Source: a virus
Taxonomy: Duplodnaviria; Heunggongvirae; Uroviricota; Caudoviricetes
Direction: 5' to 3' (one strand)
Length of the DNA: 64,000 nt
IMG/VR virus record: IMGVR_UViG_2703718819_000007
The notes under the pieces were generated by a model that was not told the origin of the DNA, made no database searches, and worked only from the letters and a program-made list of their open reading frames with translations. Positions 10,602-46,638 of this stretch are shown here, in pieces (the stretch's first letter is position 1; every line of letters starts with the position of its first letter). The translations under genes were made by a program, and so were the position numbers.

Positions 10602-10612
10602 ATGGAGTCTGT

Positions 10613-22946: not shown

Positions 22947-23195
22947 GATGACCTCCTTTGGCTTTTTTCGAGAAATGCCACCACAAAATGTGGTGCCGGG
23001 AGGCTCGAAACGGCCCAAAAGATACCGCGGACTTATTCCCCTTGCGGGTGTTGTATTCGTCGCCCTCCCGACATTGATCGGGGATGTGACCGCACACTGT
23101 GCTATCACTGAATAACAGGCATAAAAAATCCAACACTGACGGGGTTGGTTTAATCCGCTTTTGGGAGGTTTTCGAGGCCTCGGCGCGGAGTATAG

Positions 23196-23483: not shown

Positions 23484-23810
23484 AATTATGACTCCTGACG
23501 TTTTAGTATTGACTGCCACCTTAGTGGGGTGGCGGGCTTCAACTACCGCGTCAGACGGCGGAGCGTATTTCCCGAAAGGGTATTGTATTAGGCTCTCTCG
23601 ACCCGCCATTGATATGGCGATACCTGTAAACAGGCATAAAAAAGCCGCAAAGCTATCGGGTGCGGTTGACCGCTGACGTTGTAGTGCAGTCAGTATGCGA
23701 TAGCTCTGGCAGATTTGTCAAATCGTGCAGTAACATCCTTTTCTTCCTTGCCATTTCTCAATGATGACAAAGGGTGGATTCGGATTGGTATTGGGACAAA
23801 AGTGAGACAC

Positions 23811-24012: not shown

Positions 24013-26439
24013 TTAAACCTTTTCGATCTGGACAAGATTGCTGTGCGACGGGTTTCCCTTTGCCAGCGGTGAAGGGCGGTGAGAGGTCAGAATATTGATA
24101 CTGCCGCCGTGATCGACCCGGTCACCAAACATATCCGCTTTAAGCCACGCACCTTGCCCGATGGCGGTAACGCCAGGCAGAATACGCGGAGTCACTTTTG
24201 CGGCAATCAGCATTTCTCCATTATTGTTAAATACCCGCACGGTATCGCCATGACGGATACCGCGTGCCTGAGCATCAATGGGGTTGATCCACACCTCTTG
24301 TGGGCAGGCCTGCTGTAACACATCAATATTGCCGTAGCTGGAGTGGGTACGCGCTTTGTAGTGGAAGCCCGTTAACTGCAGTGGATAGGTTTTCCGCAGG
24401 GGATCGTCCCAGCCATCAAAACCTGGGGTATACGCAGGAAGGGGATGAATAATTTCATCTTTTTTCAATTCCCAGGTATCTGCAATCTTCGCCAGTCGTT
24501 CAGAATAAATTTCGATTTTCCCCGAAGGTGTTTTCAACGGGTTTGCCTGTGGATCTTCACGGAATGCGCGGAAAGCGACGTAGTGTTCTTCCGGGCATTT
24601 TTTCTTAAAGATCCCGGTCGTTTTCATCTCCTCGTAGTCGGGCATCTCAGGGTTACGTTCCTTCGTTTTCGCATGGAGATATTTGATCCATTCATGCTGA
24701 CTGCGACCTTCAGTAAAGGTTTGATAAACGTCTGGTCCTAAGCGTTTGGCGACTTCACTCAGCATCCAGTAGATGGGTTTGCGTTCAAATTTTGCTGAGG
24801 TTGCGGGTTGGGCGAGGATCACATAGCCCATATTCCCTGCAGATTCATGAGAGATAAGGTCTTCTTGCTCTGTTGGCATCAGGTCGGGCAACAGGATATC
24901 GCAATACTTAGCCGAGGCCGTCATGAAGTGGTCAATGCCAACAATCATCTCGCACTTGCTGTCATCCTGAAGCACCTCATGGGTGTGATTGATGTCGCCA
25001 TGTTGATTGATCAATGTGTTACTGGCGTAGCACCATAAAAACTTGATGGGGACATCCAGTTTTTCTTTTCCACGAACACCATCACGGGTCGCGGTCATTT
25101 CCGTACCATGGTCGATGGCATCTGTCCATGTAAAGACGGAAATCTGCGTTTTAACAGGATTCTCAAGCATCGGGAACCATTCTACCCCCAGATCCCAGCT
25201 ACCTTCGCGTACACCTGAGTTGCCGCCGTTTATGCCGACGTTACCGGTGAGAACGGAAAGCATGGCAATAGCGCGGGACGTTTGCTCGCCGTTGGAATGT
25301 CGTTGTGGCCCCCAACCCTGACAAATATAAGCAGGTTTTGCTGAACCGATCTCTCGTGCCAACTGGATAATTTTTTCTGCCGGGATGCTGGTGATTTTTG
25401 CTGCCCATTCCGGCGTTTTAGCTATGCCGTCAGGCCCTTCGCCCAGAATATAGGCTTTATAATGCGCGTTACGTGGTGCGTTGGCGGGCAGCGTTTTTTC
25501 ATCGTAACCAACACAATATTTGTCGAGAAATGGCTGATCGACCATGTTTTCAGTAATCAGTACCCAGGCAATCGCACAGGCCAGTGCGCCATCGGTGCCA
25601 GGGCGAATGGGCAGCCATTCATCTTCACGCCCGGCAGCAGTGTCGTTATAACGTGGATCGATGACGATCATGCGTGCGTTTGAACGTTCGCGGGCTTGCT
25701 CGACGTAGTAAGTGACACCACCGCCGCTCATCCGCGTTTCTGCCGGGTTATTTCCGAACATAACGACCAGTTTCGTATTGGCGATATCATCCGGGCTGTT
25801 GCCATCATTGGCACCGAACATATAACTCATTGCGGCACTGATCTGTGCGGTACTGTAGCTGCCATAGCGACTGAGAAAACCACCGCAAGAGTTCATCAGA
25901 CGGTACGGGACGTTTGAGTTGGTGATGTTTCCGCCATCTACGCCTGTTCCGTACAGGACATGTACAGCCTCATTGCCGTAATCTTTCAGGATCCGCCGAA
26001 GATTATCACTGATGGTATCCAGGGCTTCGTCCCAACTTATCCGTTCAAATTTACCTTCACCGCGCTTGCCGACGCGCTTCATGGGATATTTCAACCTATC
26101 AGGATGATTCATCCGTCGGCGGATAGAGCGCCCGCGTAAACACGCTCGAACCTGATGGTTACCGTAGACGTCGTCACCTGTCGTATCAGACTCCACCCAG
26201 TACACGGTGTCATCTTTCACATGCAAACGTAACAGACAGCGGCTCCCGCAGTTAACGGTGCAGGAACTCCAGACCGCTTTCTCTTCTACCGGAGCCTCTG
26301 CCGCCCGGACCATTTGGGAAAATGGCAGAGTGAAAGCACTGCTTGCCAGCGCAAGACTGCCAAGTGCGGAGGTTTTCATCAGACTTCTACGGCTGATTTC
26401 AGCCTTCATGAGCGCCTCTGTGGTATGGATTTTCATCAT
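24013..26439 (-). CDS. ynfF: DMSO-reductase-family molybdopterin oxidoreductase catalytic subunit YnfF (Tat signal)
   Basis: RRSLMKTSALGSLALA twin-arginine signal, CxxCxxxC Fe-S motif, 808 aa. Confidence 0.85.
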   Translation of the reverse strand: MMKIHTTEALMKAEISRRSLMKTSALGSLALASSAFTLPFSQMVRAAEAPVEEKAVWSSCTVNCGSRCLLRLHVKDDTVYWVESDTTGDDVYGNHQVRACLRGRSIRRRMNHPDRLKYPMKRVGKRGEGKFERISWDEALDTISDNLRRILKDYGNEAVHVLYGTGVDGGNITNSNVPYRLMNSCGGFLSRYGSYSTAQISAAMSYMFGANDGNSPDDIANTKLVVMFGNNPAETRMSGGGVTYYVEQARERSNARMIVIDPRYNDTAAGREDEWLPIRPGTDGALACAIAWVLITENMVDQPFLDKYCVGYDEKTLPANAPRNAHYKAYILGEGPDGIAKTPEWAAKITSIPAEKIIQLAREIGSAKPAYICQGWGPQRHSNGEQTSRAIAMLSVLTGNVGINGGNSGVREGSWDLGVEWFPMLENPVKTQISVFTWTDAIDHGTEMTATRDGVRGKEKLDVPIKFLWCYASNTLINQHGDINHTHEVLQDDSKCEMIVGIDHFMTASAKYCDILLPDLMPTEQEDLISHESAGNMGYVILAQPATSAKFERKPIYWMLSEVAKRLGPDVYQTFTEGRSQHEWIKYLHAKTKERNPEMPDYEEMKTTGIFKKKCPEEHYVAFRAFREDPQANPLKTPSGKIEIYSERLAKIADTWELKKDEIIHPLPAYTPGFDGWDDPLRKTYPLQLTGFHYKARTHSSYGNIDVLQQACPQEVWINPIDAQARGIRHGDTVRVFNNNGEMLIAAKVTPRILPGVTAIGQGAWLKADMFGDRVDHGGSINILTSHRPSPLAKGNPSHSNLVQIEKV

Positions 26440-26496: not shown

Positions 26497-27523
26497 TTAT
26501 ATTTTTTCGATCTCGACCAGATTAGTGTGCTGCGGGTTTCCCTTCGCCAGTGGTGAAGGGCGCAGAGTGGTTAGCGTATTCACACAGCCGCCATGGTCGA
26601 TTTTATCGCCAGACATATTGGCCTCGTGCCAGGCTCCCTGGCCCATAGCGCTAACTCCAGGGAGAATACGTGGTGTTACTTTGGCTGGTAGCCGAACTTC
26701 GCCACGATGGTTAAACACCCGCACCATATCGCCGTTGGCAATCCCACGTTTCTGCGCATCTATAGGGTTGATCCACACCTCCTGACGGCAGGCAGCCTTC
26801 AGGAGATCAATATTGCCGTAGGTCGAGTGAGTACGGGATTTGTAATGGAAACCAAACAGTTGCAGTGGGAAGGTTCTACGTTCAGGGGAGTCCCAGCCTT
26901 CAAAGGTAGAGGCATAAACTGGCAGTGGGCTTATCACTTCATCTTTTTCCAGTTCCCAGGTACGGGCAATTTCCGCCAGCTTGCTGGAATAAATTTCAAT
27001 CTTACCGGAAGGTGTTTTAAGTGGATTTGCCTCGGGGTCGTCACGAAATGCTTTGTAGGCGACAAAATGACCATTGGGATCTTTACGCTTATAGATACCC
27101 ATTTTTTTCAGTTCGTCGTAAGACGGTAACGCCGGATCTTTGGCAAGCATTTTGGCGTACAGATGTTGTAACCATTGTTCCTGCGTGCGACCTTCAGTGA
27201 ACTTTTGATAGACGTCAGGTCCAAGACGTTTCGCGACTTCACTCAGGATCCAGTAAATCGGTTTGCGTTCGAATTTTTCGCTGGTGACAGGCTGGAGGAA
27301 AATGAGATATCCCATGTTACCGGCGTAGTCGTTAGGAATAATATCTTCCTGCTCAACGGTCATCAGGTCTGGCAGCAGAATGTCGGCATATTTTGCCGAT
27401 GAGGTCATAAAGTTTTCGATGACCACAATCATTTCGCATTTCGATTCGTCCTGCAGAATTTCATGCGTTTTGTTGATGTCAGAATGCTGATTAACGAGGG
27501 TATTTCCCGCGTAGTTCCAGATG
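26497..27523 (-). pseudogene. ynfE: ynfE 3' (C-terminal) fragment, separated from its 5' part by the 6.7 kb insertion
   Basis: Translation ...ESIWNYAGNTLVNQHSDINKTHEILQDESKCEM... to ...VEIEKI paralogous to the YnfF C-terminus; upstream part of the ORF reads into element DNA. Confidence 0.8.
27513..27523. repeat. Left copy of 11-bp direct repeat agttccagatg (target duplication or att core)
   Basis: Identical 11-mer at 34224-34234; joining the flanks restores an in-frame ynfE (KFIWNYAGN). Confidence 0.75.
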
Positions 27524-27588
27524 GACTCCACTGTCAGACGGATGGACGGACTTGAAGTAGTTGACTCAACGCTACTTAAGGTCCTGAT

Positions 27589-29211
27589 ATGACTGACATT
27601 AACCATGACAATACTGTATATCCATCCAGTTCTTTCTCTGGGTCTCCCTATCTGTATCAGCAAGTCTACACCTCAAGTCCTGACACAAGGCTGACACAAA
27701 TCAACCTACTCGGCGTGGCTTGCTCGCTACTTGCTAAGCCTCAGTTAGTCCGTAGAGCCAATGGTCGATATACTATCCGCTTCAGACTCAAGGGACAGAC
27801 CATCCCGTTTCTTTCAGTATCGACCCGAAGCACAGACAGGAGAGTAGCCACAATGCGTCAGAGAGAGCTTGCAGCCACAGCTAAGTCCTTCATGTTGGAT
27901 AGGCCTGATGTCTCGCTACAGGAGCTTACAGAGCACCTCCGGTCTATGGCTGAGCAGTTCCTGACAGACGCTAGTGACGATTACTGGAATGGACTTGAGG
28001 TCGCTACTTTGGTGGACGAGAAGTCCAACCTGAAGGAGCTAGCCGCTACGCAAGCCTTAAGTCTGGACCAGCAGAAGGGCATAAGGTTAGCGCTTGAAGT
28101 CCTGACCGCAGCACAGCAGAGGGTAGACACTGGTGATACCTCTGGTCTGATTAAGCTGATTGATGATAATAACCATACTGATTACTCAACTATAGGCGAC
28201 TCTACGTCAATTCTGAAGAATGAGCAGGGGGATAGACCAGCAGTTTTCACACAGGAGCCCCAACCTGAGGTCACTATCGCTGACCAACCAGCTATCTGTA
28301 GTTTTTCTGAGCTAGTGTCCTCGCTGCTGGCTGAGAAGGTCCAGACCCTGAAGTCATCCAGCTACAAGGACCTGTCGTCCTCACTGAATACCGTCTCTCG
28401 GTTCTTACCTGAAGACATGGACCTGATGTCCCGCTCTGAGTGGCTGGCTGTCAGGGACGCTATGCTGGCTTCTGAGGTGAGACCGTCGACGATTAACAAG
28501 CTGCTGACTAAGGCGAAGATGTGTCTTGACTACGGTCTGATGAATGGGCAACTTGAGGGCCGCAACCCTATTGAACGGATGAAGCTGACCAAGGATATCG
28601 ACTCCAAGCGCAGAGCGTTCACAGACGAGGAGCTGGAGAGACTTCTGGTCCGTGTTGAGGCTGAGTATCAGTTCACACGACACACGGCTCACACGACCTC
28701 TGAGGCCCGTAGATGGGCGTCTCTGGTGTCTGTAGTTACTGGCGCTCGGTCTGCTGAGGTCTGCCACCTGACTAAACGTGACATTGTAACCTTAGACAAT
28801 GGACTGGTCTGTATCGACATCAACGAAGATGGGGACGGTAAGTCTGTGAAGAACAAGCATTCAGTCCGACTTGTGCCGTTGACCGATGGGGCCTGTGGTC
28901 TTGACCTGAAGTCCTTCCTCGAATGGGTAGACATGCAGCCTGACGAGGGTCCTCTCTTCGGGATGACTCCAAGCGCATACTCTAGCTGGTTTAACTCTAG
29001 GGTCCTGACTGAGGCCCTAGGAGACTCTCAGGATGTCTCTCTCCACAGTCTGAGGCATTGGCTGGCGACCCGCATGAAAGAGCGTGGAGTCAATCTGGTG
29101 GATGCTCAGGGCATCTTAGGCCATAGCAGTCAGTCCATTACGTATGACCTGTACGGGAAAGGACATGCAGTCCAGAGACTGGCTGAGGTGCTGAAGACAG
29201 CTTTACTTTAA
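27589..29211 (+). CDS. Tyrosine recombinase/phage integrase (start uncertain: ATG 27589, GTG 27715 or ATG 27853)
   Basis: C-terminal HSLRHWLAT...GHSSQSITYDLYG catalytic motifs (H-x-x-R, Y); N-terminal RYTIRFRLKGQ arm-binding-like motif. Confidence 0.85.
   Translation: MTDINHDNTVYPSSSFSGSPYLYQQVYTSSPDTRLTQINLLGVACSLLAKPQLVRRANGRYTIRFRLKGQTIPFLSVSTRSTDRRVATMRQRELAATAKSFMLDRPDVSLQELTEHLRSMAEQFLTDASDDYWNGLEVATLVDEKSNLKELAATQALSLDQQKGIRLALEVLTAAQQRVDTGDTSGLIKLIDDNNHTDYSTIGDSTSILKNEQGDRPAVFTQEPQPEVTIADQPAICSFSELVSSLLAEKVQTLKSSSYKDLSSSLNTVSRFLPEDMDLMSRSEWLAVRDAMLASEVRPSTINKLLTKAKMCLDYGLMNGQLEGRNPIERMKLTKDIDSKRRAFTDEELERLLVRVEAEYQFTRHTAHTTSEARRWASLVSVVTGARSAEVCHLTKRDIVTLDNGLVCIDINEDGDGKSVKNKHSVRLVPLTDGACGLDLKSFLEWVDMQPDEGPLFGMTPSAYSSWFNSRVLTEALGDSQDVSLHSLRHWLATRMKERGVNLVDAQGILGHSSQSITYDLYGKGHAVQRLAEVLKTALL
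27681..27700. repeat. Left arm-type repeats tgacacaagg-c-tgacacaaa
   Basis: Same 20-mer recurs at the right end (34136-34155) in direct orientation. Confidence 0.6.
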
Positions 29212-29218
29212 GTAGGAA

Positions 29219-29270
29219 GACCCAAGGTGGAGACCATATACGGCTTGATGGTTGAGACCTTGGGTCACTG
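29219..29270 (+). terminator. Long-stem hairpin after integrase stop; possible terminator or processing site
   Basis: gacccaagg ... ccttgggtc 9-bp inverted repeat. Confidence 0.35.
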
Positions 29271-29399
29271 AAGTCTGACTGAAGTTAGGGAGGGTGATAA
29301 TAATCATAATCCCTCCTGACTATAGGCCCACTGGTTCGCCTTCGGCTGTCCGACTCTAAGTCTGTCTGTGGTCTTATTTAAACTGCGTCCTAAACTCCA

Positions 29400-29650
29400 G
29401 TCCCTCCAAATTCCTATGGTCTCCTCTTGACATTCCTGTTTAACTGTGAGTCGCCTCTGGTCTCTCTTTATATATACTTCCTTAATTCCTGAGGCGTCTT
29501 TAGTCCTTGACATTCTGTCCAACCTGTGAGTCACATCCGGTCCTCCCTCTTTATATTTACTTCCTTAATTCCTAGGGTCGCCTTAATCCTTGACATCCAG
29601 TCCAGCCTGTGAGTCACATCCTGTCGCGCTACTGTATGCATCACCAGTGG
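29400..29650. repeat. Three tandem ~80-83 bp repeat units each containing TTGACAT and palindrome TGTGAGTCACA; candidate operator or iteron array
   Basis: TTGACA at 29427, 29507, 29590; cttccttaattcct and ctgtgagtcac recur with the same period. Confidence 0.65.
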
Positions 29651-29652
29651 TG

Positions 29653-29675
29653 GACTTGATTATCACTATAGGGGA
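29653..29675 (+). promoter_or_regulatory. T7-type single-subunit phage-RNAP promoter motif (tatcactatagggga)
   Basis: 12/12 match to T7 core TCACTATAGGGA (-8 to +4); 36 nt upstream of an RBS-preceded ORF. Confidence 0.6.
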
Positions 29676-29705
29676 ACCAACTAATTCAACGACAGGAGAT
29701 ACTCT

Positions 29706-30074
29706 ATGGCACGACCAATCGCAACTCACGACAACACGTTCACCAAAGCCTACTTGCAGCAGCACTGCGGGGACCTGCTGTCATTCGATGGTCAGGGTGA
29801 CTTGAGTGGCTGGCTGGATGATGTCCTTACTGGTGCTGGTCGCCTGAGCGAATCAATGGCAAGCAATACCAAGCCTGTCAGCCCATACTTGATTCTGACC
29901 CAACTACTAACGCACGACACATTAACTGTAAGCGCTGTGCAGGAGTCCCTGAGCCGTAAGCGTGTTGCCTTGGGTGAACCTATGGTTTCAACTCGCTACG
30001 CTCGCTACGTCTATTCTACGGTGGTCAGCGCCAGTAAATCCGTCAAGTACCACGCCAGTAAAGCTGGTTCATGA
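29706..30074 (+). CDS. Hypothetical protein (122 aa), first gene downstream of a T7-type promoter
   Basis: AGGAGA RBS 6 nt upstream of ATG. Confidence 0.6.
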   Translation: MARPIATHDNTFTKAYLQQHCGDLLSFDGQGDLSGWLDDVLTGAGRLSESMASNTKPVSPYLILTQLLTHDTLTVSAVQESLSRKRVALGEPMVSTRYARYVYSTVVSASKSVKYHASKAGS

Positions 30075-30095
30075 TAAAGGACCCTAAACTATCAC
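30073..30095 (+). promoter_or_regulatory. Second T7-type promoter motif (tatcactatagggaaga)
   Basis: Shares exact 13-mer tatcactataggg with 29660-29672. Confidence 0.6.
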
Positions 30096-30504
30096 TATAG
30101 GGAAGACCAACCTTGCCTCTGAGTCTGATGCGTCAGAACATGCGAGCATCTGGTCAACCGACATTAAGTATCTCTCCTAAGTAATCAAGGCCCGTGACCG
30201 CCTCTGTCAGACCTCCTGTATGACCTCCAGCTCGTTAGCGTTCTTTAGTCGTCTCGGTTAGTAGCTCGTCTACTCACTACATTGGCTTAAGTCTATCACC
30301 GCTCACCATCTGGAAGTCCTTACAGCTCGTCCTGACATGCGGTCGCACCTTTATACGTACATGGAGAACATGGTCACTCCAGACCGTCAACATTTAACCA
30401 TTCACTTTCGTTAAGCACTTTCTGATGGGTCCGTTTAGGATGCGTCTGAATGGTGCGGACTCCATGTGGAGACAGAAAGTGCTTTACCAAAGGAGCATCT
30501 TTGT

Positions 30505-31020
30505 ATGAATACCGAATTACCAGTAACTAACCGCCAGTTCTTAATCATCCTGCTGACCAATGCAGAGTCCAGTGTCGATTGCTGTCGCTATAACTTAGAC
30601 CTGCTGAAGTTATCCCGATGGTATGCCCAGGCGGAAGACTGGGACTATGAGAAAATCCGGGAGATGTACGCGGAGCCTATCCAGTCATACCTCCAGACAC
30701 ACACCGAGGAAGAGCTGAAGCGTGGCCTGCAGGACATCTTCTATTTCAACAATCCTTACACCTGTGAGGGTGACTCAGAAGAGATGGATTGGATAGCGTC
30801 ACGCTCTGATGCCGACTTGAAGCACATCTCTAACGCGATGATGCAGGTGGAGAGCAAATGGTCTCGCCGACTTCAGGTCCTAACTGAGGATTACGAAAAC
30901 GGCACCTTTGATAAGCTGGTCCCACCTGATACCGAACGTCTTCAGGCGAAAGCTGACCAAGAACAGCGCTTCAAGTCCTTTGCCGAAGCTCTGGCGGGAG
31001 GTGCCTCTTATGACTTCTGA
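30505..31020 (+). CDS. Hypothetical acidic protein (~171 aa)
   Basis: AAGGAG RBS 10 nt upstream of ATG 30505. Confidence 0.55.
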   Translation: MNTELPVTNRQFLIILLTNAESSVDCCRYNLDLLKLSRWYAQAEDWDYEKIREMYAEPIQSYLQTHTEEELKRGLQDIFYFNNPYTCEGDSEEMDWIASRSDADLKHISNAMMQVESKWSRRLQVLTEDYENGTFDKLVPPDTERLQAKADQEQRFKSFAEALAGGASYDF

Positions 31021-31504
31021 CAATAAGCAGGAATACACCATTCATATCTTCGGTCAGGACATCACCAGTCAGGACGGATTGTTTCGACTCGATGAAATTC
31101 GCCGGGTCGGCATTCAGATTGGCAAAGTAGAAGACACCGAGTCGACACAGTACAAGCGTTTTGCTCAGACCAAAGTTGGAAAGCTACTGAGGAATAGGCA
31201 GAAAATCCGCCTTATCCGAATGGGTGAACTCGGGTCTACCGTCCTTGCTGACCCCGCCGCTACTGTAGAGTTTGGTCGCTGGCTGGACTTTGAGTACGGA
31301 CTGGCAGTCTCTGAAGCCTTCGTGTCTATGACCTCCAGCGCCACCGTGCAGTCTGCTGTAGCGTCTGCTGAGGACATCAAGCCGGAGACCAAGGAATTCA
31401 TCCAGCGTCATGGCACAGGCCTCTACATCGCCGGACGTGAAGTCTCACAGGCTGAGTATTCAGACTATCAAGCTGTGACCGCTGGTCGCTGTGAGTGGAG
31501 GTAA
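31009..31504 (+). CDS. Hypothetical protein (~165 aa)
   Basis: ATG overlapping the upstream stop (translational coupling). Confidence 0.5.
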
Positions 31505-31510
31505 GTAATC

Positions 31511-31684
31511 ATGGCTATGATTGACCCACGCACACCTGAGGGCCGCATGACTCTCCGTTACCGTGGCTACCGGACTGAAGTCCTCCTCAGAGAGCTTGGT
31601 CTAGACCCGGAAGATGAGACCCGCCAGCACCAATCCCGAGACGAGCTGATAGCGCAACTGGTCGCTATGAAACTGTCTGCCTAA
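31511..31684 (+). CDS. Small hypothetical protein (57 aa)
   Basis: GGAGG RBS upstream of ATG; not in ORF track because <60 aa. Confidence 0.45.
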   Translation: MAMIDPRTPEGRMTLRYRGYRTEVLLRELGLDPEDETRQHQSRDELIAQLVAMKLSA

Positions 31685-31780
31685 TTTTAAAACCTTTTGA
31701 GATGACCGATGCGGGGAGACCCGTAGGCGCTACTGCGTCTGCGATACCGATAGTCTCAACTCTCAAGAGGAGAATTACCT

Positions 31781-32272
31781 ATGATGTTCAACAACAACAA
31801 CTGGAAGCTGTCAGTCACCGACATCAACCTTTATGAAAACACTGTGAGTCTGGACGGTCAGCCCTATCCGCTGTCGCTCGCTATCAAGACCCTCATTCCG
31901 GGCTACCTGTCAGGCCTGCCGTCTACCAGCCGCGAGGCAATGGAGTTACTGGAAGCTCTGGCTGAAGCTGGCGTAGCTATTGGCAACTTCTTCAGTAATG
32001 ACCTGATGACCGCCTATGGTCGCCGCCAGCTTAACAAACGAGCTGAGGCTGAGCGTATCGCTAAAGAGCTGGCATCTCAGAAAGAGCGTATGCGTGAAGA
32101 GAACATGACCGATGCAGAGTGGCAGAAAGAGCTACAGCGCCGCGAACAAGTCAAAGCTGAACGCCGGACCTATGGTGAGAACCTCCGCAGTGCAACCCAT
32201 TCCGCTGGTCGCTCCCGTGCCGCTATTGTCGCTGACCTTGAGTCAGGCGGTAACTGGCTGGACAGCTTATAA
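31781..32272 (+). CDS. Hypothetical protein with charged coiled-coil C-terminal half (163 aa); scaffold-like by position
   Basis: AGAGGAGA RBS; K/E/R-rich helical region; immediately precedes the 328-aa ORF. Confidence 0.5.
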   Translation: MMFNNNNWKLSVTDINLYENTVSLDGQPYPLSLAIKTLIPGYLSGLPSTSREAMELLEALAEAGVAIGNFFSNDLMTAYGRRQLNKRAEAERIAKELASQKERMREENMTDAEWQKELQRREQVKAERRTYGENLRSATHSAGRSRAAIVADLESGGNWLDSL

Positions 32273-32356
32273 GACACACAGTCCCTGACCCGATGTTAGG
32301 GACTCCTCAGTTTTGAGGACTCACAGTATTTAAACTAATTTAGGAGATTGATTATT

Positions 32357-33343
32357 ATGACGATTAAAGACGCTTTCCAGTTTGGCATTGAGCCAGTACG
32401 CATCACCGATACCGACAACATTCAGGTCAATGAAGGTCTGCCGACTAACGCTGACCCGCAGGTCTACGCCCTCCAGTTAGCTAAGACGGTTAAGGCTATG
32501 CTGAACGGTGTACTTAAGGACGCTCAAGAGAACATCCCGTTCCCTGTAGAAGTCCTGCCGACCCGTAACAGCTTACCGACCCCAATCATTGCCCACACTC
32601 TGGCTGACCGCTCTGTGGTCGTTCCTGTCCGTGGTGGCAAGCGACCTGAAGTCGTGACCATTCCGTCTGGACAAGAAATCGTGGTCGAACCAATCGAGCA
32701 GGCTATTCTCATCTCTGAGCAGACCACTCTCTGGGACGCCAAGTCATCCACCGGATTCACTCAGGGCACACTTCAGCAGGACGCTATGAACATCTGTGAG
32801 AATGTGGTCCGTACCATCAACGCTCACATGGTCGACGTTCTGGAATCCTCTAAGCTGCTGAAGACCGTAGAGCTTCCTGTCCTGACTGGTAGCCTGACCG
32901 CTAAGGCAGACGCTATCATGGACGCTCTGTATGAGAACACAGAGCCTTCTTTCGGTTCTGAGGTGTCTAACTACGGTATTATCGCTCATGAGAGCCAACT
33001 GAAAGCACTGTCCCGTCTGGCTGCTAAGCAAGGCTTCTCCGGTGAAGACGCTATCGTCGATATGCTGGGAACAGACATCGCCTACTACAACGGTGAAGAC
33101 AAGGGTGTATTCATGCTGGCTAAACGCTTCACGGCTCTGAGCTTCGGTTGCTTCCGTCACGATGGCGAGAATATTACGGTCGTCCTTTCACGTGATGGCG
33201 ACTCTCAGTCCCACGACTTGGAAATCCTCGGTAAAGTGTACGTTGTCGCTGAAGCTGCTACGACCATCAAGATGGGCACTGGCTCAGCTACTGCCGTCCT
33301 GCCTGTAGTCAAACGCCTGAAGTTCACCAAGACCGAAGCGTAA
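32357..33343 (+). CDS. Hypothetical 328-aa protein, largest non-integrase gene of the element; candidate structural (capsid-like) protein by context only
   Basis: AGGAGA RBS 8 nt upstream; leader tttaaactaatttaggagattgattattATG resembles the T7 gene-10 leader. Confidence 0.5.
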   Translation: MTIKDAFQFGIEPVRITDTDNIQVNEGLPTNADPQVYALQLAKTVKAMLNGVLKDAQENIPFPVEVLPTRNSLPTPIIAHTLADRSVVVPVRGGKRPEVVTIPSGQEIVVEPIEQAILISEQTTLWDAKSSTGFTQGTLQQDAMNICENVVRTINAHMVDVLESSKLLKTVELPVLTGSLTAKADAIMDALYENTEPSFGSEVSNYGIIAHESQLKALSRLAAKQGFSGEDAIVDMLGTDIAYYNGEDKGVFMLAKRFTALSFGCFRHDGENITVVLSRDGDSQSHDLEILGKVYVVAEAATTIKMGTGSATAVLPVVKRLKFTKTEA

Positions 33344-33348
33344 GACCA

Positions 33349-33588
33349 ATGGGTAAGAGCATTAGTAAAGGCTTCAGGTCCATCGCCAAGGGCCTGACAG
33401 GTGGTGGTGGGACTCAAGGTGGGGCTTCGGTCCCGCCTCCTGTAGCTCCTCCTGTAGCTCCTCCAGATGACGCTCAGCAAGCTGTAGTCGATACCCAAGG
33501 TCAGGAGACCGAGGGAGGTAAGACCATGAGCAGAGGTAAGTCTGGACTGAATATCAGCAGGACTTCAGGTGGTGGCCTGTCACTGTGA
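33349..33588 (+). CDS. Small Gly/Pro-rich protein (79 aa)
   Basis: ORF 5 nt after previous stop. Confidence 0.4.
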   Translation: MGKSISKGFRSIAKGLTGGGGTQGGASVPPPVAPPVAPPDDAQQAVVDTQGQETEGGKTMSRGKSGLNISRTSGGGLSL

Positions 33589-33826
33589 TTAAGACATCTA
33601 TACAGCCTGTGGAGGGTGGACGATATCAAGCAACAATCTGGATGACACGCAGAGTCTATAAGCGGCTATGCTGGTCACTGGCTGAAGCTGAACAGTGGGT
33701 GAGACGTAAAGTGCCTACCGTTCAATCGTTCCAATCATCATGATAACTATGGTCTGGACCAATGGTCTGGACCTTTGTTTTGTACTAGTTATCTAGTGCA
33801 GTAGTACAATAGACGAAGGAGGCTTT

Positions 33827-33982
33827 ATGTCCATGACTTCCGCAGACCTAAGGTCCCTCCTGACTCTGGTCTATAAACTCGTGCTCCTCTCTGTGGGTCT
33901 CTATATGGTCCTCTCCGGTCGACTCGGTGTGAATGTATTCGACACTCTGTCTAAGGCTGTGGGTGGGCTTCTGGGGGCTTAG
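33827..33982 (+). CDS. Small hydrophobic (single transmembrane) protein, 51 aa; holin-like by size only
   Basis: Strong AAGGAGG RBS; LVYKLVLLSVGLYMVLSG hydrophobic core. Confidence 0.4.
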   Translation: MSMTSADLRSLLTLVYKLVLLSVGLYMVLSGRLGVNVFDTLSKAVGGLLGA

Positions 33983-34135
33983 GTTTGGACTCACAGTGGG
34001 ACCGATGGTTTCTGACAGAAAAATGTGAATGACCATCTAATACATTAAGCCAGCAGACTTCTCCCCCATAGCCCCGCCTCAAGTCCAGACCGAGGCCACC
34101 GGGGTCCTGACCAGCCGTCTAGACATCCCGTCTAA

Positions 34136-34168
34136 TGACACAAGGCTGACACAAAGCCTGACACAAAG
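34136..34168. repeat. Right arm-type repeats: three copies of tgacacaa(g/a)g
   Basis: Direct repeats at 34136, 34147, 34159 matching the left-end 20-mer. Confidence 0.6.
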
Positions 34169-34223
34169 TCCTTGACTCAATGCAGGACCTCAGACCTACT
34201 AAGGGTCCGCTTCAAGTCCTTGA

Positions 34224-34234
34224 AGTTCCAGATG
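34224..34234. repeat. Right copy of 11-bp direct repeat agttccagatg
   Basis: Identical to 27513-27523. Confidence 0.75.
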
Positions 34235-35634
34235 AACTTAATGGGCACATCCAGTTTATCTTTGCCGCGGACGCCGTCGCGGATTGCCGTCATTTGCGGA
34301 CCATGATCGATAGCATCTGTCCAGCTGAAGCAGGAGATTGACATTTTGACCGGATTATCCAGCACCGGCAGGCGTTCTATGGTAATGGTATAGGTCGATT
34401 CACGCGCGCCACTATTTCCGCCGCTGATGCCGACATTGCCCGTCAAAATAGGTAACATAGCAATAGCGCGTGCAGTCAGTTCGCCGTTTGCCTGGCGTTG
34501 CGGCCCCCAGCCCTGGCAGATATAAGCGGGTTTTGCTGTGCCAATTTCACGCGCCAGTTTGATGATACGGTCTACCGGGATACCGGTAATTTGCGAAGCC
34601 CACTGCGGCGTTTTCGCTGTGTTATCATCACCTTCACCAAGAATATAGGCTTTATAGTGACTATTTTTGGGTGCATCTGCGGGTAAGGTTTTTTCGTCAT
34701 AGCCGACGCAGTATTTATCGAGAAAAGGTTGATCAACGAGATTTTCGTTAATCAATACCCAGGCAATACCCGCAACCAGCGCGGCATCGGTGCCCGGGCG
34801 AATAGGGAGCCATTCATCTTCACGACCAGCAGCCGTATCGGTATATCGCGGATCGATAGCAATCATTTTGGCGTTCGATTTCTCGCGCGCTTTTTCAAGA
34901 AGATAAGTGATGCCACCGCCGCTCATGCGGGTTTCTGCCGGGTTGTTACCAAACATCACGACCAGCTTGCTGTTTTCAATATCCGTGGTGCTGTTGCCAT
35001 CATTACTGCCGTAGGTGTAGGGCATGGCACAGGAAATTTGCGCGGTGCTGTAGGAGCCATACTGATTGAGTGAACCGCCGTAGCAGTTCATCAGGCGTTT
35101 GACCGCCGAGGCTGATGGCGAAGAGCGGGTCATATTGCCGCCAACGATCCCCGAAGAGTACTGAATATATACAGCCTCATTGCCATATTGTTCGACGGTT
35201 TTCTTCAGGCTACTGGCGATAGTATCCAGGGCTTCATCCCAGCTAATCCGTTCGAATTTGCCTTCGCCGCGTTTGCCCACGCGTTTCATTGGGTAATTCA
35301 AGCGATCGGGATGATTAATACGCCGACGGATGGATCGACCACGCAAACAGGCGCGTACTTGATGATTGCCATACTCGTCGCTGCCGGTGTTGTCAGTTTC
35401 CACCCAGGTGACTTCATTATCTTTAACATGTAGACGAAGTGCACAGCGGCTACCACAGTTGACGGAACAGGCACCCCAGATCACTTTTTCGCTGGCCTGT
35501 TGTACCGCTGCCGCTGCACTGCGCAGGGTGAACGGTAAAGAAAAACCGCCTGCAGCCAGCGCCAGAGAACCTATCGCGGTTGATTTAACGAGTGTTCTGC
35601 GGCTGATGCCCACCATTCGGTCATTTTTGGACAT
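34224..35634 (-). pseudogene. ynfE: ynfE 5' (N-terminal) fragment with Tat signal, interrupted by the element
   Basis: MSKNDRMVGISRRTLVKSTAIGSLALAAGG...; reading frame runs into element sequence and stops at 34177. Confidence 0.85.
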
Positions 35635-38561: not shown

Positions 38562-39776
38562 ATGAAGATCGTAAAGGCTGAAGTTTTTGTTACCTGTCCG
38601 GGGCGTAATTTCGTCACATTAAAAATCACCACTGAGGACGGTATTACGGGCCTTGGGGATGCCACCCTCAATGGACGTGAGCTTTCCGTGGCCTCTTATT
38701 TGCAGGATCACCTTTGTCCGCAGCTTATTGGTCGCGATGCGCACCGTATCGAAGATATCTGGCAGTTTTTCTATAAAGGTGCTTACTGGCGTCGCGGTCC
38801 GGTTACGATGTCGGCCATTTCAGCGGTTGATATGGCGCTGTGGGATATTAAAGCCAAAGCTGCCAACATGCCGCTTTACCAGTTACTCGGCGGCGCGTCT
38901 CGTGAAGGGGTGATGGTTTATTGCCATACCACCGGTCACAGTATTGATGAAGCTCTGGATGATTATGCCCGTCATCAGGAGCTGGGATTCAAAGCCATCC
39001 GCGTGCAGTGCGGAATCCCTGGTATGAAAACCACCTACGGCATGTCGAAAGGTAAAGGTCTGGCTTATGAACCCGCAACCAAAGGACAGTGGCCGGAAGA
39101 GCAGTTGTGGTCGACGGAGAAATACCTCGATTTCATGCCGAAATTGTTTGACGCGGTACGTAACAAGTTTGGTTTTAATGAACATTTGCTGCATGACATG
39201 CACCATCGCTTAACGCCTATTGAAGCGGCGCGCTTTGGTAAAAGCATTGAAGATTATCGCATGTTCTGGATGGAAGACCCGACGCTTGCAGAAAACCAGG
39301 AATGCTTCCGTCTCATTCGCCAACATACCGTCACACCCATCGCAGTGGGTGAAGTCTTCAACAGCATCTGGGACTGCAAACAACTGATTGAAGAGCAACT
39401 CATCGATTATATCCGCACCACGCTGACCCATGCAGGCGGAATTACCGGTATGCGCCGGATTGCCGATTTTGCTTCGCTGTATCAGGTACGTACTGGCTCA
39501 CACGGTCCTTCCGATTTGTCACCAGTCTGCATGGCTGCAGCGCTGCACTTTGATCTGTGGGTCCCCAATTTCGGTGTCCAGGAATACATGGGTTATTCCG
39601 AACAAATGCTCGAAGTCTTCCCGCACAACTGGACTTTCGATAACGGCTATATGCATCCGGGAGACAAACCGGGTCTTGGCATCGAATTCGATGAAAAGCT
39701 GGCGGCGAAATATCCCTATGAACCTGCTTATCTACCAGTCGCACGTCTGGAAGATGGCACGCTGTGGAACTGGTAA
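38562..39776 (+). CDS. rspA: Starvation-sensing protein RspA (enolase superfamily, mannonate dehydratase-like)
   Basis: [38 protein letters not shown]... Confidence 0.9.
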
Positions 39777-39787
39777 GGAGTAAGATA

Positions 39788-40807
39788 ATGAAAAGCATAT
39801 TAATTGAAAAACCGAATCAACTGGCGATTGTCGAACGTGAAATACCCACCCCGTCAGCGGGTGAAGTACGAGTAAAAGTGAAACTTGCCGGAATTTGTGG
39901 TTCAGATAGCCATATTTATCGTGGGCATAATCCTTTTGCGAAATATCCGCGCGTCATTGGACATGAATTCTTTGGCGTCATTGATGCGGTGGGTGACGGC
40001 GTGGAAAGCGCCAGAGTCGGTGAACGTGTTGCTGTCGATCCGGTGGTCAGCTGTGGGCATTGCTATCCGTGCTCTATAGGTAAACCGAACGTTTGTACGA
40101 CACTTGCTGTATTAGGTGTGCACGCTGACGGTGGTTTCAGTGAATATGCCGTGGTTCCGGCAAAAAATGCGTGGAAAATTCCTGAAGCAGTGGCCGATCA
40201 ATATGCGGTGATGATCGAACCTTTTACCATTGCGGCTAACGTAACCGGACATGGTCAACCGACTGAAAATGATACCGTTCTGGTTTATGGTGCCGGTCCA
40301 ATCGGCCTGACGATCGTTCAGGTATTAAAAGGCGTCTATAACGTTAAAAATGTGATTGTTGCCGATCGCATTGATGAACGACTGGAAAAAGCGAAAGAGA
40401 GCGGGGCAGACAGGGCGATTAATAACAGCCAGACACCGCTTGGCGAGATTTTCGCTGAAAAAGGCATCAAGCCGACATTAATTATCGATGCGGCTTGTCA
40501 TCCTTCTATCCTGAAAGAGGCCGTTACGCTGGCTTCTCCAGCGGCACGTATTGTATTGATGGGCTTCTCCAGTGAACCGTCTGAAGTGATTCAGCAAGGA
40601 ATTACCGGAAAAGAACTCTCTATTTTCTCTTCACGCTTAAATGCAAATAAATTTCCGGTTGTTATCGACTGGTTAAGTAAAGGGTTAATTAAACCAGAAA
40701 AATTAATTACCCATACGTTTGATTTCCAGCATGTTGCTGATGCCATTAGTTTATTTGAACAGGATCAAAAACATTGCTGCAAAGTCTTACTCACTTTTTC
40801 TGAATAA
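39788..40807 (+). CDS. rspB: Starvation-sensing protein RspB (zinc-dependent alcohol dehydrogenase family)
   Basis: GICGSDSHIYRGHNPFAKYPRVIGHEFFG zinc-binding motif; GAGPIG Rossmann motif. Confidence 0.9.
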   Translation: MKSILIEKPNQLAIVEREIPTPSAGEVRVKVKLAGICGSDSHIYRGHNPFAKYPRVIGHEFFGVIDAVGDGVESARVGERVAVDPVVSCGHCYPCSIGKPNVCTTLAVLGVHADGGFSEYAVVPAKNAWKIPEAVADQYAVMIEPFTIAANVTGHGQPTENDTVLVYGAGPIGLTIVQVLKGVYNVKNVIVADRIDERLEKAKESGADRAINNSQTPLGEIFAEKGIKPTLIIDAACHPSILKEAVTLASPAARIVLMGFSSEPSEVIQQGITGKELSIFSSRLNANKFPVVIDWLSKGLIKPEKLITHTFDFQHVADAISLFEQDQKHCCKVLLTFSE

Positions 40808-45105: not shown

Positions 45106-45198
45106 TTTGTTTTAACCTCATGACAGATTTAAGGATGAACAAATCCCTGCCATTGCTGGCATATAAGAATGAAACCGGATATTTATTACGGAACTGTT

Positions 45199-45390
45199 TT
45201 AAAGACCTGCCGGGATTTCGATATTATCCTGGTGAATAACTTTATCGACCGGGTAACAGTTACCGGGAATTTTCTGTTCGGTTGCTGCAGTCATACACTC
45301 CTGCATTGTCCTGTGAACACTGACTGCAATATCAACTGGCACTCCGGAAACAAGAAAAACTGTCAGAACAAGCGCAAATGCTGAATTCAT
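45199..45390 (-). CDS. Small hypothetical protein with N-terminal hydrophobic segment
   Basis: AAGGA RBS; MNSAFALVLTVFLVSG. Confidence 0.45.
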   Translation of the reverse strand: MNSAFALVLTVFLVSGVPVDIAVSVHRTMQECMTAATEQKIPGNCYPVDKVIHQDNIEIPAGL

Positions 45391-45575: not shown

Positions 45576-45749
45576 TATCGCGTCCTCAACAATGAATTTT
45601 GTGATGCAGTGCCTGGTGCCTCCAGGTGACGTTAACCAGTTAACAATTAACGTCGGATACAGAGAATCCACCCATAACACTGTTTTTGGTTTTAACTGTT
45701 CCGCGTGCGCTTAGCCGCATTCACCGCATCACAAAATTCACTTTAAAAA

Positions 45750-46637: not shown

Positions 46638-46638
46638 A

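Follow-up and report, generated by a model that had tools for sequence, protein, structure and literature searches.

A GATC-free integrative element in Escherichia coli, probably a satellite of virulent T7-like phages

Results

The window analysed here (the whole stretch of DNA, 64 kb) contains a 6.7-kb integrase-bearing island inside a ynfE-like E. coli gene, and this island coincides with a gap in which GATC does not occur. The avoidance of GATC is the result of active selection, as seen from synonymous-site tests and from its persistence across relatives, and the island is probably a GATC-avoiding satellite of virulent T7-like phages, its sites having been purged in a phage-type phase. The gap, the element and its borders are as follows:

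27251–34304, no strand: GATC-free interval, 7,054 bp from one host GATC site to the next (gap length 7,058 bp)
27524–34223, plus strand: body of the integrative element, 6.7 kb, all ORFs on the plus strand, helper-like composition
27513–27523, plus strand: left att core AGTTCCAGATG, one of the two direct repeats within the interrupted ynfE-like gene
34224–34234, plus strand: right att core AGTTCCAGATG
27589–29211, plus strand: tyrosine integrase (int), 540 aa (Pfam Phage_integrase, E=1.7e-14; phrog_1, E=4.7e-43)
27681–27700, plus strand: TGACACAAGGCTGACACAAA, copy 1, with an identical partner near the opposite end; may serve the integrase as an arm-type site
34136–34155, plus strand: TGACACAAGGCTGACACAAA, copy 2, exact
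29219–29266, plus strand: inverted repeat GACCCAAGGTGGAGACCAT...ATGGTTGAGACCTTGGGTC, directly behind the int stop codon
29426–29625, plus strand: tandem array of three units of about 83 bp; CTTGACAT and an AT-rich segment are present in every unit

By exact count the window holds 200 GATC sites, none of them between those at 27247–27250 and 34305–34308, and its second-longest gap is 2,103 bp. About 270 bp of host DNA at the left and 70 bp at the right of the gap are GATC-free by chance. For the element proper (6,700 bp, GC 51.6%), the first-pass annotation had reported no GATC over some 6.7 kb against about 26 expected, and the count agrees: 0 sites, nowhere near the expected frequency, against 26.1 from base composition, 31.4 from a first-order and 20.3 from a maximal-order Markov model (Poisson P ~5e-12, 2e-14 and 2e-9, respectively). 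This is despite an enrichment of the dinucleotides GA (509) and TC (493). The flanks carry 200 sites against 222–267 expected, and other palindromic tetramers are without comparable depletion in the element. GATC does return in host DNA just outside it, as had been noted, the true site being 34305–34308 and not 34307–34310.

The same holds at the level of codons. In 1,000 synonymous-codon shuffles over the 5,241 coding nt of the element, 16.6±3.1 GATC arose, with a minimum of 9. GAT for Asp ahead of a C-initial codon is never used (0/17, versus 31/86 elsewhere; P=0.0025), nor is ATC for Ile behind a G-ending codon (0/10, versus 43/66 elsewhere; P=1e-4), and xGA codons followed by TCN score 0/45. 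Could the gap be an artefact of chance or base composition? Long GATC gaps do exist, the runner-up in the window among them; however, the Poisson probabilities, the shuffles, none of which fell below 9, the match of the gap edges to the element borders and the recurrence of the gap in independent relatives leave this explanation virtually no weight. It was already refuted by the Poisson values, the shuffles and the recurrence in E. coli copies.

Relatives occur in E. coli, Citrobacter, Rouxiella and other Enterobacterales, and promoters and GATC avoidance are kept in them. The AGTTCCAGATG repeat likewise borders the element in seven other E. coli genomes, and the eight E. coli copies together hold three GATC in about 53 kb, all singletons at different positions. 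No GATC is found in a Rouxiella relative at a different att site (7.0 kb), in the L091 relative (6.6 kb) or in that of C. portucalensis (5.9 kb), whose integrase is only 31% identical. Relatives with 32–41% identical capsid proteins have 1–4 GATC, and 3 of those 4 fall in a minus-strand cargo ORF. Taken over all relatives, GATC avoidance spans 32–93% capsid-protein identity and unrelated integrases; like the avoidance of CCWGG and the promoters, it is kept where diverged relatives have different integrases and occupy different insertion sites. The unit is intact across genera and att sites (6.1–6.9 kb, common gene order). IMG/VR yielded three matches, all integrated copies, with no free or concatemeric form among them, and no published description of such an element was found in the literature.

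The composition of the element is that of a phage. Its tetranucleotide signature is indistinguishable from that of the T7-like phage GA2A and unlike that of E. coli (r=0.87 to GA2A versus r=0.27 to the E. coli flank, GA2A's own chunks scoring 0.86–0.91 against the GA2A signature). Every segment, int included, is nearer to GA2A, and the signature switches exactly at the element borders. CCWGG (Dcm) density is 0.15/kb in the element, 1.97/kb in the flank and 0.10/kb in GA2A. That T7 is strongly depleted in GATC, as the annotation had stated, is confirmed (6 sites versus 141 expected), and GA2A has 7 versus 149; with 0 against about 20–31, the deficit of the element is of similar size. Poverty in Dcm sites and tolerance of CTAG are also common to the element and these phages. 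The element differs from them in being a chromosomally integrated 6.7-kb island and not a phage genome; although mostly replicated and methylated as host DNA, it has kept a phage-type signature.

Two phage-type promoters and a leader lie behind int:

29654–29676, plus strand: promoter P1, T7-group phage RNA polymerase type, CTTGATTATCACTATAGGGGAAC, predicted +1 at 29671
30083–30105, plus strand: promoter P2, CCTAAACTATCACTATAGGGAAG, predicted +1 at 30100, exact match to the GA2A consensus
30106–30465, plus strand: conserved untranslated leader of 360 nt downstream of P2, candidate origin or regulatory RNA

The nine promoters of GA2A share the consensus CT(A/T)AACTATCACTATAGG, from which P1 departs at −13 and −11. 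The motif occurs exactly twice in the 64 kb, both times intergenic and on the plus strand. As predicted promoters, P1 and P2 are shown to be of the Kayfunavirus (K1F/GA2A-type, T7-like) RNA polymerase type, and they face the element's genes. The promoter is present in only four species-representative genomes, always adjoining an integrase of the element's family, and in variant elements a second-specificity promoter (T7-like or T3-like) is stacked beside the Kayfunavirus one. The leader opens with GCCTCTGAGTCT, a sequence that also stands directly behind the GA2A terminal repeat; an Rfam search of the leader gave no match. In the integrated state int is without a phage promoter upstream, and a sigma-70 promoter scan around the tandem repeats did not rise above chance.

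Three further sequences resemble phage packaging signals:

27635–27660, plus strand: TCTCTGGGTCTCCCTATCTGTATCAG, within the 5' end of int
29289–29316, plus strand: hairpin GGAGGGTGATAATAATCATAATCCCTCC, 96–100% identical to the Kayfunavirus right-end hairpin
33986–34162, plus strand: look-alike of the helper concatemer junction/terminal-repeat start, collinear with GA2A 40226–40335 and Enterobacter phage BHUENT8

TCTCTGGGTCTCCCTATCTGTATCAG resembles the sequence found where the terminal repeat has its inner edge, both in T7 (TCTCTGTGTCCCTATCTGTTACAG, which holds the sole ATCTGTT in T7) and in GA2A (CCTCTGAGTCTCTATCTGTATAACC). The T7 sequence is presumably an RNA polymerase pause or concatemer-processing site, and the same role for TCTCTGGGTCTCCCTATCTGTATCAG is putative. 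The Kayfunavirus hairpin lies between the rightmost promoter and the terminal repeat (GA2A 39771–39798, with counterparts in phiYIO1-1, IMM-002, Pisces, ECG4 and others), and in T7 a comparable hairpin follows phiOR at a distance of about 100 nt; in the element the hairpin is upstream of P1, whereas its phage counterpart is downstream of the promoter. The junction mimic finds its best place genome-wide in GA2A at z=8.3 and scores z=10.4 against BHUENT8, at an identity to helper junctions of only about 65–74%.

The remaining genes are the following:

29706–30074, plus strand: ORF of 122 aa, first gene downstream of P1 (phrog_23123, E=1e-8)
30466–31020, plus strand: ORF of 184 aa, variable module, probable start ATG 30505
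30908–31504, plus strand: ORF of 198 aa that probably starts near 31010
31511–31684, plus strand: conserved ORF of 57 aa, 95% identical in Citrobacter portucalensis
31781–32272, plus strand: ORF of 163 aa immediately preceding the capsid gene, charged helical C-terminal half
32348–33343, plus strand: HK97-fold major capsid protein, 331 aa
33349–33588, plus strand: T7 gp7.3 homologue, 79 aa (phrog_1320, E=1.8e-11)
33585–33743, plus strand: ORF of 52 aa
33751–33783, plus strand: terminator-like hairpin, then a T-run
33827–33982, plus strand: ORF of 51 aa with a hydrophobic segment

The 122-aa product has no Pfam, NCBIfam or PADLOC match, and an excision or regulatory role is our guess. The slot of the 198-aa ORF is taken by a bona fide KilA-N protein in some relatives. 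Position and composition make the 163-aa product, which matched no family in Pfam, PHROG or NCBIfam searches, a candidate scaffolding protein, and the 51-aa product may be a small membrane protein. The gp7.3 homologue is 42% identical over its full length to GA2A gp36, which itself passes Pfam VirionAssem_T7. Structural neighbours of the capsid protein include SaPIbov5 Ccm (HK97-fold, size-redirecting); no sequence relation to the helper capsid protein was found. Replication, terminase and portal genes are absent from the element, which means that everything would depend on a helper.

Discussion

An origin in a T7-like lineage, proposed in the first-pass annotation, is supported with one refinement. 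Promoters, gp7.3, the junction and hairpin look-alikes and the signature make the link a strong one; however, the element itself is not a fragment of such a phage, since gp7.3 alone was detected by tblastn against GA2A and the capsid protein is not that of the helper. This bears on the view that the island is a decayed integrated T7-like phage with inherited GATC poverty and no selection of its own. The signature shared with T7 and GA2A, the gp7.3 homologue and the phage promoters would fit such a remnant, but no trace of RNA polymerase, DNA polymerase, primase, portal, terminase or tail genes was found, and size and gene order are constant across genera and att sites. Moreover, two integrases with only 31% mutual identity are both GATC-free, the rare GATCs are scattered singletons, and avoidance reaches down to the most diverged capsid proteins; we consider a remnant very unlikely.

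Most likely, as judged from the DNA alone, the element is an undescribed parasite and represents a new satellite family of virulent T7-like (Kayfunavirus) phages, a reading that follows from the T7-like promoters, the packaging-signal look-alikes, the phage composition and its own capsid gene. From these features we infer excision, helper-dependent transcription, replication and packaging in the following way. The element would be silent in the chromosome until the helper RNA polymerase fires P1 and P2. Excision would bring the halves of the junction mimic together at att, the helper replisome would copy the excised element, and the helper terminase would package its DNA, either into shells built or resized by the element's capsid protein or as approximately 6-mers in helper heads. 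Several points count against the satellite reading. A T7-like infection is fast and destroys the host DNA, so that there is little time in which to excise. The lack of replication, terminase and portal genes, the modest identity of the junction mimic, the displaced hairpin, the departures of P1 from the consensus, the missing phage promoter ahead of int and the purely integrated IMG/VR copies weigh in the same direction.

How the sites were lost may be explained by the same cycle, and the best reading is that selection, acting while the element is replicated and transferred in phage fashion, upholds its avoidance of GATC and CCWGG. DNA synthesis in the phage phase may be too fast for methylation, so that the methylation state would differ between donor copy, progeny and recipient, turning every Dam site (GATC) or Dcm site (CCWGG) into a liability. 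Such sites would be open to attack by MutH or by nucleases that are sensitive to, or dependent on, methylation, and would be purged from the element as from helper genomes. Selection against GATC, which the annotation had suggested, is borne out by the synonymous-site tests and the relatives; candidate agents are Dam/MutH, GATC-specific restriction and co-amelioration under the helper polymerase mutation spectrum. To our knowledge, no common GATC-cutting restriction system exists in E. coli, Citrobacter and Rouxiella, and this, together with the sparing of other palindromic tetramers, argues against a satellite shaped by GATC-specific restriction during transfer instead of Dam/MutH. On the other hand, depletion of both Dam and Dcm sites fits avoidance of any methylation-state-dependent nuclease, DpnI, DpnII and DpnIII cassettes acting on GATC are documented (PMC12707154), and mutation-rate effects alone fail to explain GATC avoidance in a φX174 study (PMC5014478). 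Restriction as the agent is a possibility of some substance, if the less probable one. MboI/DpnII-like enzymes cut unmethylated and DpnI-like enzymes methylated GATC, and EcoRII-like enzymes would act on CCWGG. Counter-selection of GATC in enterobacteriophages through Dam/MutH has a published precedent (PMC5014478), and avoidance of GATC and CCWGG in the genomes of T7-group phages and other enterobacteriophages goes back to McClelland 1984 and to Deschavanne & Radman 1991, both cited there.

It is also conceivable that the island is a fixed anti-phage device and not a transmissible satellite, its composition being that of recently captured phage DNA. Helper RNA polymerase promoters would then induce a decoy capsid-like protein and a gp7.3 mimic, poisoning T7-like assembly. 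The wiring of its genes to helper promoters, the stacked specificities resembling broad sensing, the KilA-N module of the variants and the structural kinship to SaPIbov5 Ccm agree with this. In contrast, a PADLOC search of the element found no match, the intact integrase and att, the multi-genus spread with module exchange and the junction and hairpin mimics argue for mobilisation, and long-term synonymous-site avoidance of GATC and CCWGG is hard to explain for chromosome-only DNA; we hold such a device to be unlikely. In known satellites, interference and mobilisation are not mutually exclusive.

Read as a satellite of T7-like phages, the element can be placed beside known systems. Chung and Hinkle reportedly found in 1990 that plasmids with a T7 promoter-origin and a concatemer junction were replicated and packaged during T7 infection. 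The element has matching, putative cis logic in its phage promoters and junction-like sequence, the kind of elements that sufficed there, and differs in being natural, integrative and protein-coding where the plasmid system is artificial. Size redirection is known from SaPIbov5 Ccm and P4 Sid, which have no sequence similarity to the element; SaPI and P4 helpers are temperate siphoviruses or myoviruses, and induction proceeds by anti-repression and not by helper RNA polymerase promoters. According to published descriptions, capsid-forming PICIs (cf-PICIs, e.g. EcCI2) encode capsid, portal, protease, head-tail adaptors and terminases and steal tails only; of the genes so listed, the element has the capsid protein alone. 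Unlike them, it has helper RNA polymerase promoters that link it to virulent T7-like phages. cf-PICIs are about twice its size.

By description, the phage-inducible chromosomal minimalist islands (PICMI) of Vibrionaceae (PMC10803314) are alike in being integrative satellites of virulent phages with about 6 kb and a minimal gene set. PICMI integrates beside fis, has no capsid gene and is packaged headful as concatemers (PMC10803314), whereas the element sits in ynfE-like or other sites, codes for both an HK97 capsid protein and a homologue of gp7.3, and bears helper RNA polymerase promoters and a junction mimic. The genome of the PICMI helper is a whole-number multiple of the PICMI unit (8 x 6.1 kb; PMC10803314), and a similar ratio is seen here, with 6 x 6.7 kb = 40.2 kb against a helper of 40.5 kb.

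GATC avoidance in the element

An exact scan of the window finds 200 GATC sites, none of them between 27247-27250 and 34305-34308; this GATC-free gap of 7,058 bp compares with 2,103 bp for the second-longest in the window, and the next-longest stretches (44805-46779 and 53162-55265) lie in a Qin-like cryptic prophage region. The element itself (27524-34223; 6,700 bp, GC 51.6%) contains no GATC at all, against 26.1 sites expected from base composition, 31.4 from a first-order Markov model and 20.3 from a maximal-order Markov model. The Poisson probability of a zero count under these three expectations is ~2e-9 to 2e-14, which excludes chance as the origin of the gap. The first-pass annotation had claimed zero sites against about 26 expected, and both figures hold under exact counting; no model brings the observed frequency near to expectation. 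It was also right that GATC returns just outside the element, although the first right-hand site is at 34305 and not at 34307.

Composition does not account for the deficit: the dinucleotides GA (509) and TC (493) are enriched in the element and the trinucleotides GAT (79) and ATC (85) are common. Shuffling synonymous codons over the 5,241 coding bases (n=1,000) gave 16.6±3.1 GATC with a minimum of 9, against none observed, and the avoidance is visible in every reading frame. Aspartate is encoded by GAT before a C-initial codon in 0/17 cases versus 31/86 elsewhere (P=0.0025), isoleucine by ATC after a G-ending codon in 0/10 versus 43/66 elsewhere (P=1e-4), and TCN follows none of the 45 xGA codons. 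The absence of GATC thus reflects selection at silent sites; the annotation had named selection as one of two explanations, and counts and silent-site tests together confirm the absence.

A helper-like genome signature

The missing GATC is one facet of a genome signature shared with T7-like phages. T7 was said to be strongly depleted in GATC, and indeed it has 6 sites where 141 are expected; the Kayfunavirus GA2A, a T7-like phage that we use as reference for the presumed helper, has 7 where 149 are expected. Tetranucleotide deviation profiles of the element correlate with GA2A at r=0.87 and with T7 at 0.83, versus 0.27 with the E. coli flanks; 6.7-kb pieces of GA2A correlate with their own genome at r=0.86-0.91, so the value of the element is equally high. 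In dinucleotide distance the element lies 58 from GA2A and 216 from the flanks. All segments, including the integrase gene, are nearer to phage than to host in composition, and in a sliding window the change from host-like to phage-like falls at the borders of the element. The Dcm site CCWGG occurs once (0.15/kb), compared with 1.97/kb in the flanks and 0.10/kb in GA2A, and CTAG occurs 11 times, compared with 10 times in 57 kb of E. coli, which avoids it. These are the traits of the T7-group signature: GATC observed/expected below ~0.1, scarce CCWGG, unavoided CTAG and T7/GA2A-like tetranucleotides. The proposed link to a T7-like lineage is upheld by this signature together with promoters of the GA2A type and a homologue of gp7.3, and the GATC clue points beyond a mere compositional curiosity.

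Two further biases are shared with GA2A: GTC and GAC are strongly enriched (27-30/kb vs 12/kb in the flanks), as is GGTCTC/GAGACC (1.8/kb vs 0.12/kb). The core recognition sequence of T7 primase is GTC, and the GTC/GAC enrichment may be related to helper-driven priming. GA2A encodes a methyltransferase, which was ruled out as a factor in GATC avoidance because it is a C5-cytosine enzyme and not Dam.

Insertion site and gene content

The element interrupts a ynfE-like DMSO/selenate-reductase gene and is bounded by an 11-bp direct repeat, which flanks it in 8 E. coli genomes.

26497-27663: C-terminal part of the ynfE-like gene, split by the element
27513-27523 and 34224-34234: att direct repeat, AGTTCCAGATG
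34177-35634, minus strand: N-terminal part of the ynfE-like gene, split by the element

The reductase gene is split and inactivated, its reading frame not being restored by the att core; the ynfF paralogue (24013-26439) is intact. At least 80% of the query is present in 47 of 5,426 complete E. coli genomes, and a ynfE-type reductase context is annotated for all element copies among the matches listed.

The element carries ten ORFs, all on the plus strand:

tyrosine integrase, 540 aa
122-aa ORF, downstream of promoter P1
variable pair of ORFs, replaced by a KilA-N protein in some strains
57-aa and 163-aa ORFs
331-aa capsid protein
79-aa gp7.3 homologue, 42% identical over its full length to GA2A gp36
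two very small ORFs

Only the integrase, the capsid protein and the gp7.3 homologue are recognisable. The 331-aa protein is modelled by AF2 as an HK97-fold major capsid protein; the model is confident with a 35-sequence alignment from a profile search, and 13 close sequences gave a pLDDT of 45, which is unusable. The protein had no match by tblastn in 50,697 phage records, nor in Pfam, PHROG, NCBIfam or PDB sequences. Kinship with GA2A gp10 was considered and rejected, as hhalign of the capsid family returned a probability of 0.2. By tblastn of all element ORFs against GA2A, gp7.3 alone was matched, and the genes that characterise Autographiviridae (RNAP, DNAP, primase-helicase, portal, terminase and tail genes) are not among the ten.

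Between the hairpin described below and P1, three ~83-bp tandem repeats (29426-29625; 84% identical) each contain CTTGACAT and an AT-rich TTTATATATAC stretch; they may be iterons, an origin or host promoters. Their place is taken by a DUF4145 ORF in relatives from the Rouxiella/Enterobacter branch. A sigma-70 and terminator scan of the element did not rise above shuffled expectation, and we therefore make no claim on host promoters. Rfam gave no match within the element.

Promoters and other helper-like cis elements

Reading of the intergenic DNA revealed two predicted phage-RNAP promoters in the two long intergenic regions, and further stretches resemble cis elements of the helper.

27635-27660: TCTCTGGGTCTCCCTATCTGTATCAG, just inside the left end, closely resembling the inner edge of the terminal repeat of T7 and GA2A
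29289-29316: 28-nt hairpin, 96-100% identical to a hairpin of many Kayfunavirus genomes
29654-29676, plus strand: P1, GGACTTGATTATCACTATAGGGGAACC, upstream of the 122-aa ORF
30083-30105, plus strand: P2, GACCCTAAACTATCACTATAGGGAAGACC, upstream of the rest of the operon
33986-34162: noncoding right end, collinear with the helper sequence that runs from the concatemer junction into the start of the terminal repeat

Exactly two copies of the 15-mer TATCACTATAGGGRA lie in the 64-kb window, each on the plus strand. The specificity region of these promoters differs from that of T7 phi10, and the phi10 promoter was not found at up to 3 mismatches. A motif scan of viral contigs led instead to ~40-kb phages of the genus Kayfunavirus (Autographiviridae, Studiervirinae). 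GA2A has nine promoters of this type, all rightward, with the consensus CT(A/T)AACTATCACTATAGG; P2 equals this consensus over 20 nt, and P1 deviates at -13 and -11. Both are predicted to be of the T7-group class III type, with a CACTATAGG core and a helper-specific region from -16 to -8, and they face genes. With an exact (P2) and a near (P1) match in silico to the consensus of the Kayfunavirus RNAP, the element may be inducible by a specific helper.

The counterpart of the 28-nt hairpin in Kayfunavirus lies between the last promoter and the terminal repeat, and T7 has an analogous hairpin ~100 nt past phiOR. The right end of the element aligns to GA2A with z=8.3, its top-scoring site anywhere in the 40-kb genome being exactly 40226-40335, and to Enterobacter phage BHUENT8 with z=10.4 over 170 nt. 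At the left end, the T7 inner-edge sequence is TCTCTGTGTCCCTATCTGTTACAG, which holds the sole ATCTGTT in T7; we take this to be the site at which RNA polymerase pauses, as concatemer processing requires. While the element is integrated, 6.5 kb separate the two halves of this junction mimic, which would come to lie side by side only across att, once it is an excised circle or part of a concatemer.

A 360-nt leader after P2 (30106-30465) is conserved between the E. coli and Citrobacter elements and has no Rfam match. It opens with GCCTCTGAGTCT, as found after the terminal repeat in GA2A, and is a candidate origin or structured RNA.

Relatives across Enterobacterales

Eight E. coli copies are 92-98% identical over their shared parts, with modules swapped, and contain 0, 1, 0, 1, 0, 1, 0 and 0 GATC when IS insertions are left out; the three sites differ in position, each being a singleton. 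Further GATC enters with IS66 and IS3 insertions in other copies. A Rouxiella element, inserted elsewhere and with a capsid protein 74% identical, shares the two promoters and has no GATC in a 7,017-bp gap; the 6.6 kb of a complete copy at locus L091, bounded by direct repeats of its own and with 88% identity in the capsid protein, are likewise GATC-free. In the Citrobacter portucalensis element, 93% identity in the capsid module goes with only 31% in the integrase, and the first 5.9 kb of the locus are free of GATC. GATC occurs 4 times in a more distant relative with 41% capsid-protein identity and once in one with 32%; the flank of the latter has ~9 GATC per kb. The former, L083, occupies the same ynfE site, and 3 of its 4 GATC lie in a 146-aa minus-strand ORF (8878-9318 of that locus), which looks like recently gained cargo from which GATC has not yet been purged.

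These comparisons bear on the possibility that the element is merely a decayed T7-like prophage, a reading that would account for its phage-like signature. This is unlikely: tblastn against GA2A detected no remnants of other phage genes, the unit is intact and conserved across genera, and unrelated integrases are equally free of GATC.

Promoter type varies by lineage. In several variants, one or both of the promoter positions hold an additional promoter of different specificity, T7-like (AATAAGCACTCACTATAGGGGA) or T3-like (ACCC(C)TCACTATAGGG), which lies ~28 nt ahead of the Kayfunavirus-type promoter; stacking at both positions is seen in Citrobacter portucalensis.

Stacked promoters in loci of element relatives
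L087: ~4571-4626
L088: ~4650-4704
L089: ~4527-4582
L098: ~3885-3912 and ~4428-4482
L100: ~2335-2389 and ~2905-2959

This arrangement suggests that several helper genera may be able to trigger one element. Among 100,044 species, with one genome each, the Kayfunavirus-type promoter was present in 4 genomes, each time adjoining an integrase of the element family. The unit length in the family is constrained to 6.1-6.9 kb (the element in the window and the relatives L082, L085, L091 and L095); six units of 6.7 kb make 40.2 kb, compared with a Kayfunavirus genome size of 39.2-40.9 kb.

In IMG/VR we saw integrated copies only and no free or concatemeric ones. Public assemblies hold several contigs of near-element length (6.4-6.8 kb), such as L082 (6,413 bp) and L091 (6,661 bp). 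They were rejected as free forms and are not counted as evidence of excision, because L091 has short host flanks besides its direct repeats; such contigs may arise from assembly breaks at att where occupied and empty sites are mixed.

A proposed satellite of virulent T7-like phages

Judged by its predicted genes and cis elements, the element works like a phage satellite. It is integrative, with its own integrase and att repeats, and it has no full set of replication, packaging and virion genes; therefore, it would depend on a helper. The junction and hairpin mimics and the spread over several genera suggest that it may be packaged in helper-derived particles and transduced. We lean towards the reading that it represents an undescribed family of ~6.5-kb, capsid-encoding satellites of virulent T7-like phages of Enterobacterales, which sense the helper RNAP, are replicated by the helper, are packaged through a junction mimic and avoid GATC and CCWGG owing to alternating methylation.

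We propose the following course. The element would be silent until the single-subunit RNA polymerase of a helper appears, which would be sensed directly, P1 and P2 driving the element genes; stacked promoters of two specificities, often present, would widen the helper range. Excision would complete the junction mimic. The helper replisome may then copy the element, with the 360-nt leader after P2 as candidate origin; in T7, origins are phage promoters. The helper terminase would package the element through the junction mimic, while shells would be formed or resized by the capsid protein and the 163-aa candidate scaffold, whose gene lies upstream of the capsid gene; in another scenario, six units could fill a helper head. 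DNA made at phage speed would be unmethylated and the chromosomal copy methylated. Because of this difference, the element would be vulnerable at GATC and CCWGG sites, either to MutH or to methylation-sensitive or -dependent nucleases, and the sites would be purged, so that their total avoidance may be the footprint of alternation between a methylated chromosomal state and an unmethylated, phage-type replication state. A methylation-mismatch explanation has been proposed for enterobacteriophages (Deschavanne & Radman 1991, McClelland 1984, as cited in PMC5014478).

A second possibility is a non-mobile defence device triggered by the helper RNAP. No element ORF matched a PADLOC defence family at E<=0.1, and such a device would leave the turnover of att and integrase, the junction mimics and the long-term avoidance at silent sites unexplained; we consider it less likely than the satellite.

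Among known satellites, the P4-like type features a primase/helicase alpha, Sid/Psu/Delta and a P2-type cos site; the element does not fit this type, with no family match for any ORF. The cf-PICIs share with the element a major capsid protein of their own but are described as also encoding a portal, prohead protease, head-tail connectors and terminase(s), which the element, at only 6.7 kb, does not; no ORF had a Pfam, PHROG or NCBIfam match to a portal, protease, connector or terminase. PICMIs lie next to fis, have no capsid gene and belong to Vibrionaceae (PMC10803314), unlike the element with its ynfE-like site, capsid gene and Enterobacterales hosts. PICMIs fill the helper head with eight units (PMC10803314), and the six-unit filling proposed here would be of the same kind. 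A literature search that was sparse in subscription journals turned up no account of a satellite of T7-like or Kayfunavirus phages, and novelty is accordingly provisional.

Few virulent phages have been studied as well or used as widely as T7 and its relatives, which serve in expression systems and in therapy against K1 and other E. coli. If our proposal is true, reading the helper's own RNA polymerase would be a very direct mechanism of satellite induction and would explain how chromosomal islands can spread on strictly lytic podoviruses; interference or gene transfer could then influence the outcome of phage therapy. The old Dam/MutH hypothesis for GATC counter-selection would also gain a natural test, as one and the same DNA would at times be chromosomal and fully methylated and at other times undergo phage-type replication. 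A tract free of GATC and CCWGG with a phage-like signature in a Dam+ genome would be a simple, annotation-free marker for such elements.

Other features of the window

Rfam matches to DicF, sok and two cspA-type thermoregulators (45750-45801, 51006-51180, 54475-54898 and 57376-57760) mark the Qin-like cryptic prophage region, which has low GC (35-44%). Two sRNA-Xcc1 matches on the minus strand (22987-23072 and 23523-23607; 74.5 and 53 bits) lie downstream of ynfF-G-H-type genes. A single plus-strand ORF of 2,806 aa (10574-18994) is possibly a giant adhesin or repeat protein. The first 1,000 nt (1-1000) have a GC content of 0.589 and an unusually strong plus-strand purine skew (GC skew 0.24, AT skew 0.32).
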